Source of the DNA: a virus | Taxonomy: Duplodnaviria; Heunggongvirae; Uroviricota; Caudoviricetes | Direction: 5' to 3' (one strand) | Length of the DNA stretch: 40,605 nt | Virus record (IMG/VR): IMGVR_UViG_2734482545_000011 | Shown: positions 1,394 to 10,539 of the stretch, piece by piece | How positions within the stretch are numbered: the stretch's first letter is position 1 | How the letters are laid out: every line of letters starts with the position of its first letter | Position numbers and translations under genes: made by a program | The notes under the pieces: model-generated | What the model was told of the DNA's origin: nothing | Database searches by the model: none | What the model saw: only the letters and a program-made list of their open reading frames with translations

Positions 1394-2092
1394 TTACTGC
1401 GAAAGTTTGTTAATGGAAAGGAAGCCGCCAAAGTTGCCGACGTTATTGCGGAACTTACAACCGCTCAGGCATTTGCTGCATTTATCCTTCGTGATATCGG
1501 ACGTTGGCTGGTCATATTCATCCGCGACAGCCGGACCGTGATAACCGCACTCATCACCGCGATAGGTCCAGGTGCAGGTATTAGCAAGCATGATGCGCCC
1601 CGGAAAAACAGCGCCGTCCGTTTCCGTCGGCGTGGACAGTACAAAGGAGGCACTGACCGCGCTCAGTTCGCTGCACTGCTCAATACGCCAGCGGCTGATC
1701 ACCTCCTGCTCCGGATCGGCGTCACTGTTTCCGTTGACGAAGTTCACCGCATCCAGAAAACGGGCGTAAACCTTACGCCTGACCACCGTTCCGCCGACCA
1801 GACTCTGCAGGTCTTCCGCCATCCCGGTGACCATGCCGTGCAGATTAGAGACTTTCAGCGTTGGCCTTGCACTGGCACCTTTGCCGTTCATCTCAAATCC
1901 ACTCCCCTGAATGGGATAGGCCTGATACTGCCGACTCTGCCAGGTGACAGACTCTCCTTTCTCGTTCTGCTCATTGCAGAAAAAGTAGCGATCCCCGCCT
2001 ACCTCGGTCAGGTCGATTTCCCAGAGCACCACGCTGGCCGACTGCTCCGCACGAATGCATTCATTCAGCGTTTCCTGTTGTATGTCCTGCAT
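1394..2092 (-). CDS. L: minor tail protein L
   Basis: 232-aa [50 protein letters not shown]..., lambda gpL-like with C-terminal Cys cluster; position between M and K. Confidence 0.9.
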   Translation of the reverse strand: MQDIQQETLNECIRAEQSASVVLWEIDLTEVGGDRYFFCNEQNEKGESVTWQSRQYQAYPIQGSGFEMNGKGASARPTLKVSNLHGMVTGMAEDLQSLVGGTVVRRKVYARFLDAVNFVNGNSDADPEQEVISRWRIEQCSELSAVSASFVLSTPTETDGAVFPGRIMLANTCTWTYRGDECGYHGPAVADEYDQPTSDITKDKCSKCLSGCKFRNNVGNFGGFLSINKLSQ

Positions 2093-2430
2093 CAGATCAC
2101 CACTTCGTCAAACTGACACGAAAAATCGGTATAGGTGATATGTTCTGTCGCTGACCACGTTCGACACACCACTCTGATTTTTCTGTTAATACCCGGCGGG
2201 CGCCAAAAAAAAGATTTATAGCCTTCATGCCGGGCTAAAAATTTTTCAAATGAATCACGTTCATTCGCCTCAACTTTGAAATCACAGGTGAAAACGCGCA
2301 GAGAATGATTAAGTCCATTTGGACTTCGTTGCTCATAACCATCACCAAATCTTACAGTTTTTATCGATGGTTTATTTTCTGTTTTCATTCCATCCTCTGG
2401 TAACCAGTGAAATTCTTCCGTATTAGCCAC
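2092..2430 (-). CDS. M: minor tail protein M
   Basis: 112-aa [43 protein letters not shown]..., lambda gpM-like; directly downstream of the tape measure gene. Confidence 0.85.
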
Positions 2431-5400
2431 TTAACATTCCCCCATCACGTCGCATATTTAACAGATTGCCCTGCACCCGCTGATCAACCATCCCCATAAG
2501 TGCTTTTATTGCCTGAGGGCCAATCTCTCCATTCTGGCCGTCATTTTGAATAGTGATTTGGTATACAGGGGCATAGGTAATATCTCCGCCTCCATTACCA
2601 CTTTTACTATTAATAGCTCTGACACCAAGAGAACCATCGGAAGTTCGTGTTAATGGCATAATGGCTTCCGGTCCAGCCTCACCAAAAACACCAGCCCCTT
2701 TTGCAAAAGCAAAAAATTGCGGGGAATCATAAATACCGTTCGAATACGTGCTCAATGACGGAGACTCATAAACACCGCCCTTTGCATTCGGAATAAATTT
2801 ACTAATAGCACTCCCGATAGTTCCTAAAATCCCCCCAGAAGAACTGTTACTAATGCTGTCGAAAATCCCAGTAATTGAAGCCTTTAATGCTATTCGACTA
2901 AGATCCGAAATCACGGAAGTAGCGAAAGAACGAAAATTTGCCTTGCCTGTCGTGACAAAATCACCCAGCGCATCGGTCATCCCATCAAACATCTGAGTCG
3001 TGGTTGATTTTATCTGCTCACTGATATCCTTAGTGTCATCCAGCCAGTTATTGAATCCCTGGGAGGCACCACTAACCCAGTCTCCTGCCTGAATATCGAG
3101 CTGCTCGTTTTTCTGTCTGACAATTTCTTTTTCCCGTTCCAGAGCATCATTCAGAGCCTGCATTTTCTCTTGAAAAACATGATCTGACATTCCACGGGAT
3201 TTATCTGCATAGTCACGTTCAAGTTGCAGACGCTGATTGTTATATCCATGTTCAATCCGCAGTAATTCCTGCTGGCGTTGCTGATTTTTATCGCCAACCC
3301 CATAACCAGCAATCTGAATATCATACCCCTGCTGACGATTATCAATCGAAGCCTGCAATGAATCACGCCATGCTGTTATTTCGGCGGATTCCTTGATTAG
3401 CCTGTTATTTTTTTCAATCGCAACATTTTTCTCCATCAACGTGGTTATTTCTTCCCGGTGTAAGAGAAGCGATTTCTGATCCTGGGTTAATTTCGATGAT
3501 GGTCGTGACTCTAGGTCGGCAATCCGCTGACGCCACTTAACCAGTTCCTGTTCAGAGGAACTTAATTTAACGGTCAACTCAGCTTGTGAACTTAGTAACG
3601 CATTCTGTTGATTCAGATGATCAATCATTCGTTGGGCTGCATCATCAGAATAACCTTTCGCCTTTGGTTGCTTTGGATCTTTATAACGCTCATTTATTTG
3701 AGCGATAAGATTATTATATTCTTCCTTTGAATACTGATTCTTTAGCTTTTCCAGTTTTGCAAGTTCACTAGCTCTCTGCTGCTCCCGGGTCTGATATTGT
3801 TTTGAAAAGGCATCTGCTCTCTGTCTGAGTTCAATTCCTTCCTGTTGTCGCTTGTTGTAATCGTTTATTGATGAATTTAGTACGTCCTGAGCAATTTTTT
3901 CTGCTTGAAGTACGCCCAATTGCTGCTTTAATCGTGCCAGCCTTTTATTTTGAGCTCCGCCATCTCCAATGCCACCTAACCCGAAAACTCCGGGTCGGGT
4001 ATTTTTTTCTATTTCATCAATTTGACGGAGAACATCTGAGATTTTTTGATCAAGGGAGGCCTCACGGCCAATATCCAGCATGGAATCCCATGCCCATTTT
4101 GCGGAGTCTGCGACAGCTTTCCATGCAGTCTCAAGATAACCAAGATTTTCTTTAATCTGGTTGGTGCGCTGGATCATTGAGGATGAGTATTCTTCTGTCG
4201 CAATGCGGGCGGCCTCCTGCTGGTTCCCTTCATCCTGTAGCGCCTTAATCTGGTTATAAGTCGCAAGTGTCAGAAAATGGTACTGATCATTAAGTTTTGA
4301 TATGGCACTGACAGGATCCTTTGCAATTTCATTGAAGTCATTAACCAGTTGTTCGGTTGATATTCCTGTTACTTCGCTCGTTTTTACTATCGCTGTCGTC
4401 ACTTGCTCCAGCGAACTGCTCGCTACCTTTCCCGAACGCACAAGCTGATTTAATACTGCCGCCGCAGCACCAGTTGTCGAATCAGCCGCATTCCCGGCAC
4501 GTTGAGCTATATCGCCCAATTGCCCGCTGGTTGTCCCCAACTGATTTCCGGTAAGAATAAGAGATTTATTAAATTCGTCCTGCTCCTGAGAGCCTTTATA
4601 GTAAGCCAGTCCTAAGACCCCAACGGCTGCTGCGGCCAGGGTAAAAGGATTAATTAATCCCAGCACATAAGAACCTACACCTTTGATCGCCGGGCCAATC
4701 CCACCGAACATATCTTTTAGCTGGCCGCCCTGCTGCATTAACACCATAAATGGCGACTGACCAGTGGACAACCCAACAACAATATCCGTCATTTGTACAG
4801 GCAACATGCGCATAGCAAAAGCCGTTTGTTTTGCCGACATTCCGGTTTTGCTTAATTGTGATTGAGTAACCTCAAGCTCACTCCGCATAGCACGAAGTTT
4901 TCCAGAAAGCTCCTCATACATTTCAGGAGAAAGCATCCCCTTAGCTTTTGCTTCATTGAGCTGTTTCTGTTGTTCTACCAGACGATTAAAAGCAGTTCCG
5001 ACAGGATCAAGTTGAGCAATCAGACGTTGCAAAGCAACAACCTGTTCATCATGCGCTTTTGCTGCTTCTCGCTCTGCCTGAGCCTCTCCGGTAAGCTCTC
5101 GCCGTGTTTCCTGTATTTTTCGGCTATAATTCTCAAACTGAGAACCATTTATTTTCCCGGATGCAAACGCAGCATTAAGTTCATCATGCTGTTGTTCAAG
5201 ATTTCTTAGCGCCGCAGCCAGAGGGTCGATCTTGTCCAGCATTCTTTGAAAGGCCTGAGCCTGCGCTTCCTGCTGGGCGGCAGCAAGTTTTCCGGCCTTC
5301 TCGGCTTCTCTCTGCGCTTGCGCAACCCCGCTCAATTCCTCTGTGGTTTCATTAAGTTTACGGACAAGAAATTCATATTCTTCTTTATCAATAAGCCCTT

Positions 5401-5656
5401 TATCGAAAAATTTCTTTAATTCAGAATAGCGTCGACCGACAGTATCAATTGCGGCACCAACTGGATCAATAGCTGCTTTTAATTTTGCGAGCGCGTTCTT
5501 CTCATCTTCTGTTGCCTTAGTCACTTTCCCTGCGCTATTTGCAGCAGTTTCCCCAGCCTGCGTCATTTTGACTAATGAGGAGGTCAGATTGTCAGCATTA
5601 TTTTTCGCTCCAGTGCTATCAATAATTATTGCGAGACGCGAGGTTTGCTCTGCCAT
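2423..5656 (-). CDS. tail tape measure protein
   Basis: 1077-aa ORF rich in Ala/Gln/Glu/Lys coiled-coil sequence with a Gly-rich hydrophobic central segment; located between the GT chaperone and M. AGGAG Shine-Dalgarno upstream of the ATG. Confidence 0.9.
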
Positions 5657-5674
5657 TTATTAAAACTCCTGACA

Positions 5675-5700
5675 ACAAAAAACCCACCGCGAAGTGGGTT
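5675..5700 (-). terminator. hairpin plus U-run just upstream of the tape measure start (attenuator-like)
   Basis: Minus strand AACCCAC-TTCGCG-GTGGGTT followed by TTTTTGTTG; 7-bp stem. Lies between the GT stop and the tape measure RBS. Confidence 0.35.
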
Positions 5701-5821
5701 TCAGGCGACATAATAGTAGATATAGCGATTACGAGGCCACGCAATGCTTTTCTCCAGGAGCATCATCGATTTAATTAAAGACACCATCACATCTCTGTAA
5801 CAGAGTGTACGTAATTAACAA

Positions 5822-6579
5822 CTACACACACTGCTCCTGAAAATACTGGTCATCCAGTGCAAAGATCACTGCTTCAAATTCATCGCGCTCAATCAATACC
5901 GGATGAGTGGCTAAATATTCATTTATCTCTGTCAGAGATAAAGGCAAAGGCACCCCAGCCATTCCAGCATAACGTCGGGCACGGGATATTACCGAATAGG
6001 CGTACAACAACTCCTTAAGCACCGGGTCTATTTCTGGTTCCGGTATCGGTGGCAACCTGAGTTTTTCTCGCTTCCATCTTGCCTTTTCCCCCCTTTCTCC
6101 CCCGAACTCCGATAACCACCGCTGGGCAGCTATGGCTTTTTTATCGTATCCTGCTTCTGCTGCTCTTTACCCTGGGCGATGCTGGCTGCTTCTGCAAGGA
6201 TCTGCCAGTACAACTCTGGATTCTGCTTAAGCAGCGCGATCCCTCGTTCTGCCGTATATTCCAGTGCAACCTCAACACCATTAACCAGTTCACCAACCCC
6301 TTTCCAGTCTTTCAGCAGATAACGAGCGGCATTATCAATGAGTAAATCATCAACAGAATCCACCTCGGAAACCTTTGAAATATCAAACTCCTTCGTTCCG
6401 ACGTGCAAACTGGCATCCATTTTCTCAATGTGGCGACGGATTAATGCATTACGGGAGCGATACTGATCGTTATCGCTGCTTGCCACCAACAGTTTTAACC
6501 CGTCTACAGGTTTTAAGTCCTTCATTGGCGTAAACCAGCGTTCTCCACCAATGATAATTTTCTGATTAAGAATAAACAT
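5822..6579 (-). CDS. tail assembly chaperone GT (-1 programmed frameshift fusion product)
   Basis: G frame ends ...QKQDTIKKP-stop at 6130; the -1 frame stays open from the slippery heptamer through to 5822 (continuation KKAIAAQRWLSEFGGERGEKARWKREKLRLPPIPEPE...QYFQEQCV). Frame arithmetic fits a -1 shift. Confidence 0.6.
6130..6579 (-). CDS. tail assembly chaperone G
   Basis: ORF between major tail and tape measure genes; start placed at an internal Met (MFILNQKIIIGG...) preceded by GAGG; ends with the A-AAA-AAG slippery site 2 codons before its stop. Confidence 0.7.
   Translation of the reverse strand: MFILNQKIIIGGERWFTPMKDLKPVDGLKLLVASSDNDQYRSRNALIRRHIEKMDASLHVGTKEFDISKVSEVDSVDDLLIDNAARYLLKDWKGVGELVNGVEVALEYTAERGIALLKQNPELYWQILAEAASIAQGKEQQKQDTIKKP
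6136..6142 (-). promoter_or_regulatory. -1 ribosomal frameshift slippery heptamer AAAAAAG
   Basis: Plus strand CTTTTTT at 6136-6142 is AAAAAAG on the minus strand, sitting just before the G stop codon (ATA AAA AAG CCA TAG). Confidence 0.6.
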
Positions 6580-6639
6580 CCATAACCTCATTCAATGCGT
6601 CCCCCTGTAGGGCAGTACCACAGGAGGAATAACGGAAAA

Positions 6640-7602
6640 TCAACTAATCGCCTCAGCACTGGCTTTTGCGATCACGGCAGCCGGGGAATTTTTTTTTCTG
6701 GTTATCGTAGGTGCTTCATCTGCTGCGGTAATGCTCAATTGAACCTGGATAATGTCGCTATTACCCCCATCAGGCCATTCACCTGACACCTGAACCTTCG
6801 GGAAACTGAAAGTGTATGCCCCCTCTCCATTCGAAAGCGTGAAGCTGAACGGAACTGTTTCTCCAGTCAGTGTTTTACTCCAGATTTCCCACGCGGCTTT
6901 AGACCATGAAAGCGTCACCGTACCGGACGGTGTAAAAGTAGTCGGAATATTTGCTCCTGCATAAGGCGAGCCAGTCCCGATACAACGCTGTGTCTGGAGT
7001 TTGTTATCGAACTGAATATCAAAACTGTCGATACAAAAACCGTTACCTCCGGCAACACCATTCAGGCTTACTGCTGAAACCTCCTTAAACGAATAACGTA
7101 GCTTTCCTGCACTATCCACAGGTTCGCCTTTGATAAAATTCGTATCATCGGCCTTTGATTCCCAGTCCAGTCCGGCAAAGGTTACGGTCGCTGTAATATC
7201 GCCGTCGTTAGGGATCTGCATTTTCCATGAGCCAACCTGCGCTCCTCTGACGACAGAGGCAATTCCGACATCGGACGCATAGGTCGCCAGAGAAAATGTT
7301 ATTCGCTCATTCCCCATTGTCAGAGAATCGCCTGACCATTCCGCGCCGAAACAGGATGCAAGAAAATCATCATGTTGACCCCAGCGAAATTTGGTACCAA
7401 CATCACCGCCGACATCCACAGTGCCAGGCGTCGCCCCCTGAGCCATCCGGGAGCCACCAATCTCATTATTTTCGCCTTTATTCTGGGTGGGTTTTACTCC
7501 CCAGCTTGTGCGTTTTAATAAACTCCAGTCACCACTTGCTGGCGTAGTGCCTGCAACCGTCTCCCGGATAAATGCCGAGATAACCTTTGCACCTGAACTC
7601 AC
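6640..7602 (-). CDS. major tail protein
   Basis: 320-aa ORF immediately upstream of the G/GT chaperone pair, Gly/Thr/Ser-rich beta-type composition; assigned by position in a conserved siphovirus gene order. Confidence 0.75.
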   Translation of the reverse strand: MSSGAKVISAFIRETVAGTTPASGDWSLLKRTSWGVKPTQNKGENNEIGGSRMAQGATPGTVDVGGDVGTKFRWGQHDDFLASCFGAEWSGDSLTMGNERITFSLATYASDVGIASVVRGAQVGSWKMQIPNDGDITATVTFAGLDWESKADDTNFIKGEPVDSAGKLRYSFKEVSAVSLNGVAGGNGFCIDSFDIQFDNKLQTQRCIGTGSPYAGANIPTTFTPSGTVTLSWSKAAWEIWSKTLTGETVPFSFTLSNGEGAYTFSFPKVQVSGEWPDGGNSDIIQVQLSITAADEAPTITRKKNSPAAVIAKASAEAIS

Positions 7603-8782: not shown

Positions 8783-9177
8783 TATCCCCCCCTCACAACC
8801 CTGACTTGTGAGCGACTAAGTCCGTACGGTTTCAGCAGTGCTATCGCAAGCTGTAAATCGGGTTCAAGCAATGCAGTGCTGTTTGCTGGCAACTCAGAAA
8901 ATGATTTCGATACACTGACCCCGTCAGCCGACACGGCTTTACTGATAACAACGCCAGAATCATTTTTCTGCTGAAACAACTTACCGAATGAGGCAATTCT
9001 GGCTGCATATGCTCCCGCAAGTTTTACCTCTTCCGGAATACGGGATGGGTTAATTTTCAGGTTGAAGCCATTAAGCCAGGCATTAGCCATTAAAACAGCT
9101 TTATTTTTAGCGTTCTCACTCGTCCAGGCGTTCCCAAACGCATTATCAACGTCATCACAGGTCACGTAAGTGATCAT
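8782..9177 (-). CDS. head-tail adaptor protein
   Basis: 131-aa ORF just downstream of the major capsid gene; synteny only. Confidence 0.4.
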   Translation of the reverse strand: MITYVTCDDVDNAFGNAWTSENAKNKAVLMANAWLNGFNLKINPSRIPEEVKLAGAYAARIASFGKLFQQKNDSGVVISKAVSADGVSVSKSFSELPANSTALLEPDLQLAIALLKPYGLSRSQVRVVRGG

Positions 9178-9399: not shown

Positions 9400-10539
9400 T
9401 TAACCAAGAATCAGACAACCATGTGCCGGCTTCACTGATGAAACACCCCATGCCAGTCCAACTTCATAGCGCACCTGGCGATACTGACGATACAGTGCAA
9501 TCTGGAACGTAATCCCTGAAATCGGGTCCGTAACATTCATTACATCATCAGCATTATCGCCACCTTCCGGCATTGCCGGAGTACGGGATGCCAGCAGAAA
9601 CGCGTTGCGATCAAACGCCATATTTGCAGTAAAGGCCCCAACAACTGTGATGGCAGTATCATCGGCCAGATCCTGACGCAGTCCGGGCGCTGCAAGAGTA
9701 ATCAGATTGCTGGTCGCTGCTGCCACAACATACTGATTCGGATCACCAGCGAACGTAACAATCTGACCTGCAGAAATACTCCCCGAACCAGTATCAATGG
9801 AAATAAGAACATCGCCTTCTTTTTTCTCTCCATTCACGAGATAACCAGTTGCAGCAACCTTTGGCGCTCGTTTCACACCTGCCGAACTGTGAATATTGAA
9901 TCCCTCCAGACGCCCCAACACGCCCTCACGCAGTAGCTGTTCAGTGCCGGATTCATTCACTTTAAACAATACAGACTGTTTTCCGCGCAAATTAGCAATG
10001 GCAGTGGAGCCAAGCACCATCTGCAGATCGGTTGTCGGTGCGCCGTTATCCTCCAGAACCTGACGAGCCAGAGCAGCATCAGAAAGATCATCTTTAACAC
10101 CAAACGGCGTTGTCCCTGCGGTTCCCACGGCGCGGGAAGCACCGAAATACAACGCACCAAGATCAGCCTCAACCTCGTTTGCAAGGGCGCGAAAAGCCTG
10201 CTTGAACTGATCAGCCAGAATGGTGTTGTAAGTCCCTGAAGGGCCAAGAGCCAGTTGTTCTTCACCATTCCATTTAACCGGTGCCATTTTGGATTTAGTA
10301 ATTTTTACATCAACAGTGCCAATATTTTGATCACCGGTATTCGGAGCTGACGGCCCCGGTACGATATCTTCGGTTTTCGCCTCAGGCGCAACTGGCGCGG
10401 TTACCGTCTGATCTTTTGCTGCGGCGTCAGCTTTTGCGTTTTTTGCTACCGCAGGGATAAAACCTACCTGCTCACGGGATACAACATCCAGGGCGGTATA
10501 AATAGTCGGGATCAACCCGGTCAGGGTATTTCCAGCCAT
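9400..10539 (-). CDS. major capsid protein
   Basis: Track ORF 9400-10632; start placed at the internal ATG (MAGNTLTGLIPTIYTALD...) preceded by AAGGAA, giving 379 aa; downstream of the scaffold gene. Confidence 0.8.
   Translation of the reverse strand: MAGNTLTGLIPTIYTALDVVSREQVGFIPAVAKNAKADAAAKDQTVTAPVAPEAKTEDIVPGPSAPNTGDQNIGTVDVKITKSKMAPVKWNGEEQLALGPSGTYNTILADQFKQAFRALANEVEADLGALYFGASRAVGTAGTTPFGVKDDLSDAALARQVLEDNGAPTTDLQMVLGSTAIANLRGKQSVLFKVNESGTEQLLREGVLGRLEGFNIHSSAGVKRAPKVAATGYLVNGEKKEGDVLISIDTGSGSISAGQIVTFAGDPNQYVVAAATSNLITLAAPGLRQDLADDTAITVVGAFTANMAFDRNAFLLASRTPAMPEGGDNADDVMNVTDPISGITFQIALYRQYRQVRYEVGLAWGVSSVKPAHGCLILG

Follow-up and report, generated by a model that had tools for sequence, protein, structure and literature searches.

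A programmed -1 ribosomal frameshift very probably operates in the gene for the tail assembly chaperone of a siphovirus prophage of the Rac type (YdaY family), as judged from the sequence of the gene and from comparison with related loci. The gene lies in a window of 40,605 nucleotides (the whole stretch of DNA that was analysed; IMG/VR record IMGVR_UViG_2734482545_000011, Caudoviricetes), within a prophage tail module that is common in E. coli. In the mechanism proposed here, translation by most ribosomes would end at TAG 6130 and yield the short protein G (149 aa). A smaller fraction would slip with AAA in the P site and AAG in the A site, both tRNA-Lys(UUU) molecules re-pairing one base back on the heptamer A_AAA_AAG, and the slipped ribosomes would then read GCC ATA GCT and onwards for 104 codons, generating a 252-aa fusion, GT. 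By analogy with lambda gpG/gpGT (PMC5009743), both proteins would cover the tape measure protein by way of their G part, the T part would recruit the tail tube protein, and both would leave before tail completion and be absent from the virion. A fixed slip frequency, again as in lambda, would set the ratio of G to GT.

Gene order and geometry of the G/T pair

The two reading frames, G and T, sit between the gene for the tail tube protein and that for the tape measure protein, all on the minus strand (Table 1), and beyond the tape measure gene follow lambda-like tail tip genes (M, L, K, I, J), as annotated in the record of an identical phage. On the minus strand, the 3' end of G reads ...CAG GAT ACG ATA AAA AAG CCA TAG, where A_AAA_AAG is in phase with the G frame and is separated from the stop codon (6132..6130) by one sense codon. 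With the G of AAG (6136) as the first base of the -1 frame, translation runs through 104 sense codons (AIAAQRWLSEFGGE...DDQYFQEQCV) to a TAG at 5824..5822. This frame is open already upstream of the G stop, with an overlap of 37 nt, and T is treated here as the C-terminal part of the predicted GT only.

The original prediction had placed a slippery heptamer near the end of G, an open -1 frame running from it to a stop at 5822, and coordinates that fit a -1 shift; all of this is borne out by translation from 6136, the 105 codons then given being the 104 sense codons plus the stop. Its coordinates for the feature as a whole are also right, and are amended here in two respects: the feature is on the minus strand, and G starts more probably at 6579 than at 6591. 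ATG 6579 is the most likely start codon because GAGG lies six bases upstream of it and because homologues from other genera begin at the equivalent Met (MFILNQ or MIILNP).

Table 1. Coordinates of the G/T pair and of neighbouring features in the window
Feature	Position	Strand	Basis or remark
G, tail assembly chaperone (YdaY family), 0-frame product, 149 aa	6130..6579	-	alternative ATG 6591 upstream
Slippery heptamer A_AAA_AAG, predicted -1 shift site	6136..6142	-	sequence; X_XXY_YYZ phase with G
T extension, -1 frame, 104 codons + TAG	5822..6136	-	translation, phrog_1189, conservation
Predicted GT fusion, 252 aa	join(6579..6136, 6136..5822)	-	M1-K148, then AIAAQ...
Tail tube (major tail) protein gene, directly upstream of G	6640..7602	-	Pfam PF18906 Phage_tube_2, E = 9.4e-32
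Tape measure protein gene, 1077 aa, next downstream of T	2423..5656	-	Pfam TMP_2 (PF06791), E = 3.9e-81; Tape_meas_lam_C; TMP_4
Terminator-like hairpin + T-run, between T stop and tape measure gene	5679..5702	-	consensus scan

Identification of G as a tail assembly chaperone comes from the family of that name, phrog_313, which G matches with E = 4.9e-46, covering positions 15-149 of the 258-position profile. T weakly matches positions 173-246 of the same profile, and this match, together with the length of the profile, suggests that some members of phrog_313 are fused GT products. T also matches phrog_1189, a family of unknown function, with E = 1.4e-36, and it reaches 18 bits with Pfam family Phage_TAC_18, below the 27-bit cut-off. 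In a copy of Pfam that lacks PF27119, G had no match and T none above threshold; the homologues carry a precomputed PF27119 assignment. A search of NCBIfam returned no match for G or T, a sequence search of the PDB with the GT fusion returned none, and Foldseek against the PDB gave nothing significant. A solved example of the chaperone fold is that of HK97 (PDB 2OB9).

Both borders of the pair have features of their own. The gap between the T stop and the start of the tape measure gene is 165 nt long (5657..5821) and holds a strong hairpin that resembles a terminator (GAAACCCAC-TTCGCG-GTGGGTTTT, then a T-run), an odd element to find inside a tail operon. Close relatives keep this hairpin; in others, the space between T and the tape measure gene is occupied by different hairpins or by far longer inserts. 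On the upstream side, nine consecutive A's (6689..6697, minus strand; ...AGA AAA AAA AAT...) fall within the final 20 codons of the tail tube gene; polymerase slippage on them is possible in principle, with no room for an extended product before G.

Conservation of the slip site and of the -1 frame

The comparison covered 96 related loci, drawn from both bacterial genomes and viral contigs and representing approximately 46-51 distinct DNA sequences in which G is 51-100% identical. In all loci except the viral contig L054, T is shifted by -1 with respect to G and its frame continues past the G stop, and the T frame is shortened in two others (L037 and L039); the overlap between T and G in the relatives spans 37-244 nt. 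The exception is due to a homopolymer indel: the linker of T contains a run of six G's (6088..6093, minus strand), and five G's in its place in L054 break the GT frame. In another viral contig, L035, an A-to-G change generates a run of seven G's and replaces one residue, Glu, by Gly. These two cases could be sequencing errors or real variants.

A slip site is present at the identical codon in 28 of 28 distinct contexts, as A_AAA_AAG in 25 and as G_GGA_AAG in three, the carriers of the latter being a Raoultella relative and two Pantoea relatives, all distant. The exchange of one heptamer for the other alters the encoded residue from Lys to Gly and keeps slipperiness. Past the site, the tail of the 0 frame is 1, 7, 25 or 35 codons long, depending on the lineage, and the -1 product aligns across the relatives from its residue 1 without any gap.

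Substitution patterns in this region are specific to the frame. The first 28 codons past the site lie upstream of any open reading frame that a gene caller would predict, and within them the ratio of synonymous to non-synonymous changes ranges from 6/2 to 14/10 in the -1 frame, versus 1/7 to 4/18 in the 0 frame; in one example comparison, the values were 14/5 and 3/18, respectively. Nucleotide diversity at the first, second and third codon positions is 0.18/0.15/0.39 in the -1 frame past the site, and 0.09/0.06/0.33 in the G frame upstream of it, being highest at the third position in both. Taken on either side of the heptamer, these patterns indicate that selection switches frame exactly at that point, purifying selection acting on the -1 frame from there onwards.

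The same data bear on the question of whether T could be a separate small protein, translated from a start codon of its own with no fusion being made. Gene callers do annotate such products, starting at TTG 6055 (77 aa, PGAP) or at TTG 6007 (61 aa, GenBank phage records), and an AAGGAG motif is located just upstream of TTG 6010/6007. In the 16 relatives examined for T start codons, however, none is conserved before T codon 59: a TTG is found at codon 28 in 5/16 and at codon 44 in 5/16, and three (L015, L016, L084) have no ATG, GTG or TTG at all in this stretch. Codons 1-58 are nevertheless conserved as protein, the ungapped alignment beginning at codon 1 and the synonymous bias covering codons 1-28, and the AAGGAG here encodes the Lys-Glu of a conserved T sequence. 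Independent initiation of T is consequently very unlikely, and frameshifting within G is retained as the route by which T would be reached.

Motif counts carry no weight in this case, AAAAAAG not being over-represented in the window (21 occurrences versus 14.9 ± 3.5 expected). Within open reading frames of 100 aa or more, 3% of codon positions are followed by a -1 frame that stays open for 104 codons or longer; this within-frame statistic (0.03) replaces the fraction obtained at random positions of the same strand for the same length (0.156), which is inflated by real genes. The case for the frameshift is built on position and on conservation across relatives, and it is the comparative evidence that is decisive for the predicted recoding. 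A chance overlap or a decaying remnant, in which the heptamer and the open -1 frame would have no function and G alone would be the chaperone, might be argued from the motif count and from the fact that the same region in E. coli K-12 belongs to a degraded cryptic prophage. Such an explanation has an almost negligible probability, in view of an arrangement that is kept across genera down to 51% identity in G, of coding selection on T, and of the intact tail module in which the pair lies, identical to that of an isolated Salmonella phage (see below).

Several other in-phase heptamers of the window open into the next gene, simply because neighbouring genes overlap. Among them, G_GGG_GGA (8785..8791, minus strand) and T_TTA_AAG (9960..9966, minus strand) occur at the ends of open reading frames and are followed by long -1 frames, which appear to be the next overlapping genes with their own ATG and not recoding sites.

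The proposed frameshift signal and related systems

A search for RNA stimulators around the heptamer gave largely negative results. The 96 nt that follow it fold no better than shuffled sequences (z = -0.08), and RNAalifold on 11 diverse relatives produced a consensus of -2.4 kcal/mol with essentially no covariation. A local 9-bp hairpin in the window begins 2 nt past the slip site and is not conserved. The sole Shine-Dalgarno-like element is an AGGA (6152..6149), 6 nt upstream of the heptamer, which is present in most relatives and changed to AAGA in L012 and L016; its presence is forced by Gln-Glu/Asp codons (CAG GAx). With no conserved stimulator found, the heptamer alone appears to be the signal, as in lambda G-T.

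The gamma/tau frameshift of E. coli dnaX, by comparison, has two stimulators, an upstream Shine-Dalgarno sequence and a downstream stem-loop, and reaches about 50%. The dnaX-type stem-loop, 5-6 nt past the heptamer, has no counterpart in the form of a conserved downstream hairpin at the present locus, and the Shine-Dalgarno element, some 10 nt before the heptamer in dnaX, is paralleled here by the doubtful, codon-forced AGGA. What the two systems share is the identical heptamer, A_AAA_AAG, and the shift-prone chemistry of tRNA-Lys(UUU) (PMC4066793). In E. coli, A_AAA_AAG and G_GGA_AAG both rank in the top three -1 motifs for efficiency, and the best heptamers without stimulators yielded approximately 0.3% in the reporter assays of Sharma et al. 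(PMC4066793). The efficiency of the shift is probably low, since a stimulator was not found, and on the basis of the latter figure the yield of GT could be very low; in lambda, the G:GT ratio is about 30:1 (PMC5009743).

The nature of the slip site also evokes the possibility that the change of frame takes place at the RNA level, with RNA polymerase slipping on the A6 run and adding or removing an A, such that some mRNAs would encode GT in a single frame. Bacteria and phages offer known cases of transcriptional slippage on runs of A or T (PMC5009743), and the slip site does hold a run of six A's. The replacement by G_GGA_AAG in three relatives, however, leaves three A's, too short for the polymerase and fully slippery for ribosomes, and distant homologues with G_GAA_AAG or C_GCA_AAG likewise have only three or four. 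In addition, efficient slippage by E. coli RNA polymerase requires runs of about 9 or more, and A6 is shorter than this. Slippage by the polymerase is thus extremely unlikely as the source of GT, and slippage by the ribosome is the reading that is followed here.

A tblastn search of a phage collection with the fusion returned matches in two pieces and two frames in Klebsiella, Erwinia, Pseudomonas and Acinetobacter phages. Of the distant homologues just mentioned, at the position equivalent to the heptamer, Erwinia phage Gungnir39 (locus L099, 1980..1995) has C_GCA_AAG directly followed by TAA, and Pseudomonas phage Aurca01 (locus L097, about 1886..1892) has G_GAA_AAG. In both phages T is still in the -1 frame and is homologous from the junction. 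The sole part of the signal that is common to the whole chaperone family is the A-site A_AAG, and for this reason we put forward, as a possible though rather doubtful extension of the main proposal, that the family may constitute a natural series in which some phages rely on single-tRNA (tetramer) slippage, perhaps aided by an adjacent stop codon, for the production of GT.

Database proteins in which G and T occupy a single frame were also considered as natural fusions and rejected. They are four in number (P0001-P0003 and P0010) and were not used as evidence, because their frame changes come from deletions or homopolymer errors, mostly in short Logan assemblies. P0001 (E. coli NB16F79_39920, 240 aa), a single-frame G-T fusion with 12 residues missing, passes into the -1 frame (...AEAG/YDKKAIAAQ...) shortly before the heptamer is reached; this implies a 3n+1 deletion, which would yield GT only, with no G.

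A close parallel in organization is lambda. The G/GT mechanism is the subject of a review (PMC5009743), through which the original work on lambda is cited here (Levin et al. 1993; Xu et al. 2004, 2013, 2014); the -1 shift in lambda takes place on the heptamer G_GGA_AAG. As in lambda gpG/gpGT, G and T have the major tail gene on one side and the tape measure gene on the other, G is short, a -1 shift close to its 3' end is the only access to T, the heptamer is bare, with no RNA stimulator detected, and the downstream tail tip genes are of the same kind; in addition, lambda's own G_GGA_AAG is found at the same codon in three relatives of the present locus. Unlike in lambda, the heptamer of the present locus is A_AAA_AAG, the tube protein belongs to the Phage_tube_2 family and not to that of lambda gpV, and G and T have no detectable similarity to the lambda G or T Pfam families.

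A second comparison is provided by TRS1_18/TRS1_19 of Acinetobacter phage vB_AbaS_TRS1 (NC_031098), where the -1 frameshift is annotated as a joined CDS. The T proteins are homologous (38.8% identity over GT residues 170-249, E = 4e-6) and share the motif ...AY..I.R.RRY...PL.L....I..Y......ER..F....FALDD, and the gene order is the same. The slip site in TRS1 was located at a G_GGA_AAG that opens into a 110-codon -1 extension homologous to T. It differs from the present site in this heptamer and in its distance from the G stop, 26 codons, and the G part is too diverged to be aligned by tblastn. The original prediction that the locus represents the conserved G/GT arrangement upstream of the tape measure gene is supported by gene order, the in-phase heptamer, the lack of a conserved start in T, the constant codon position of the slip site in relatives, selection in the -1 frame and the PHROG match, as well as by this joined CDS.

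A third system is cluster A_AAA_AAG_25 (ECs1801, O157 Sakai prophage Sp9), a tail assembly chaperone that was considered 'safely inferred' by Sharma et al. (2014, Table S4, PMC4066793). Its points in common with the present locus are the prophage origin, the conserved A_AAA_AAG and a frameshift product, predicted in the present case, that is longer than the 0-frame one. It belongs to another tail module. The idea that the present locus is a member of that same cluster was rejected, BLASTP giving no alignment of ECs1801 to G at E <= 100.

Distribution and annotation of the YdaY family

Over 1.2 kb, Salmonella phage SPF_0923 matches the region at 100% identity, and a set of E. coli phages matches it at about 98%. 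Of 5426 complete E. coli genomes, 1075 carry the tail module, as do several deposited phages. G goes by the name ydaY, after a truncated remnant in the Rac cryptic prophage of K-12. In that prophage (E. coli K-12 MG1655; locus L101, 1493..2382, corresponding to 5600..6481 of the window; ynaK-ydaY-ynaA), the slip site and the whole T frame are 100% identical to those described here. Retention of an intact slip site and T frame in a degraded prophage makes it conceivable, with the same doubt that attaches to the tetramer series and as a separate matter, that K-12 could still make a YdaY-T frameshift product.

The GenBank and RefSeq records that were inspected contain 'YdaY' and a short hypothetical protein, the latter of 61 or 77 aa and initiated at a TTG, or leave T out; none carries a ribosomal slippage annotation. 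In the RefSeq annotation that was inspected for an intact prophage, ydaY begins at an internal TTG (window 6489) and not at the full-length start, which gives a protein of 119 aa, as in the pseudogene remnant of K-12. A literature search on a ydaY frameshift, or on a frameshift in a Rac prophage tail assembly chaperone, brought up nothing relevant. No paper or record describing the predicted frameshift in the YdaY/Rac-type family was found; the G/GT phenomenon in general already belongs to the textbooks (Levin 1993; Xu, Hendrix and Duda 2004).

The main value of the finding is in annotation. Recognition of a G/GT pair would give ydaY a function, that of a tail assembly chaperone, and would correct gene models in which mis-annotation is widespread. 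The understanding of the mechanism is unchanged, and the locus would add one more sequence family to those that employ a -1 recoding signal.
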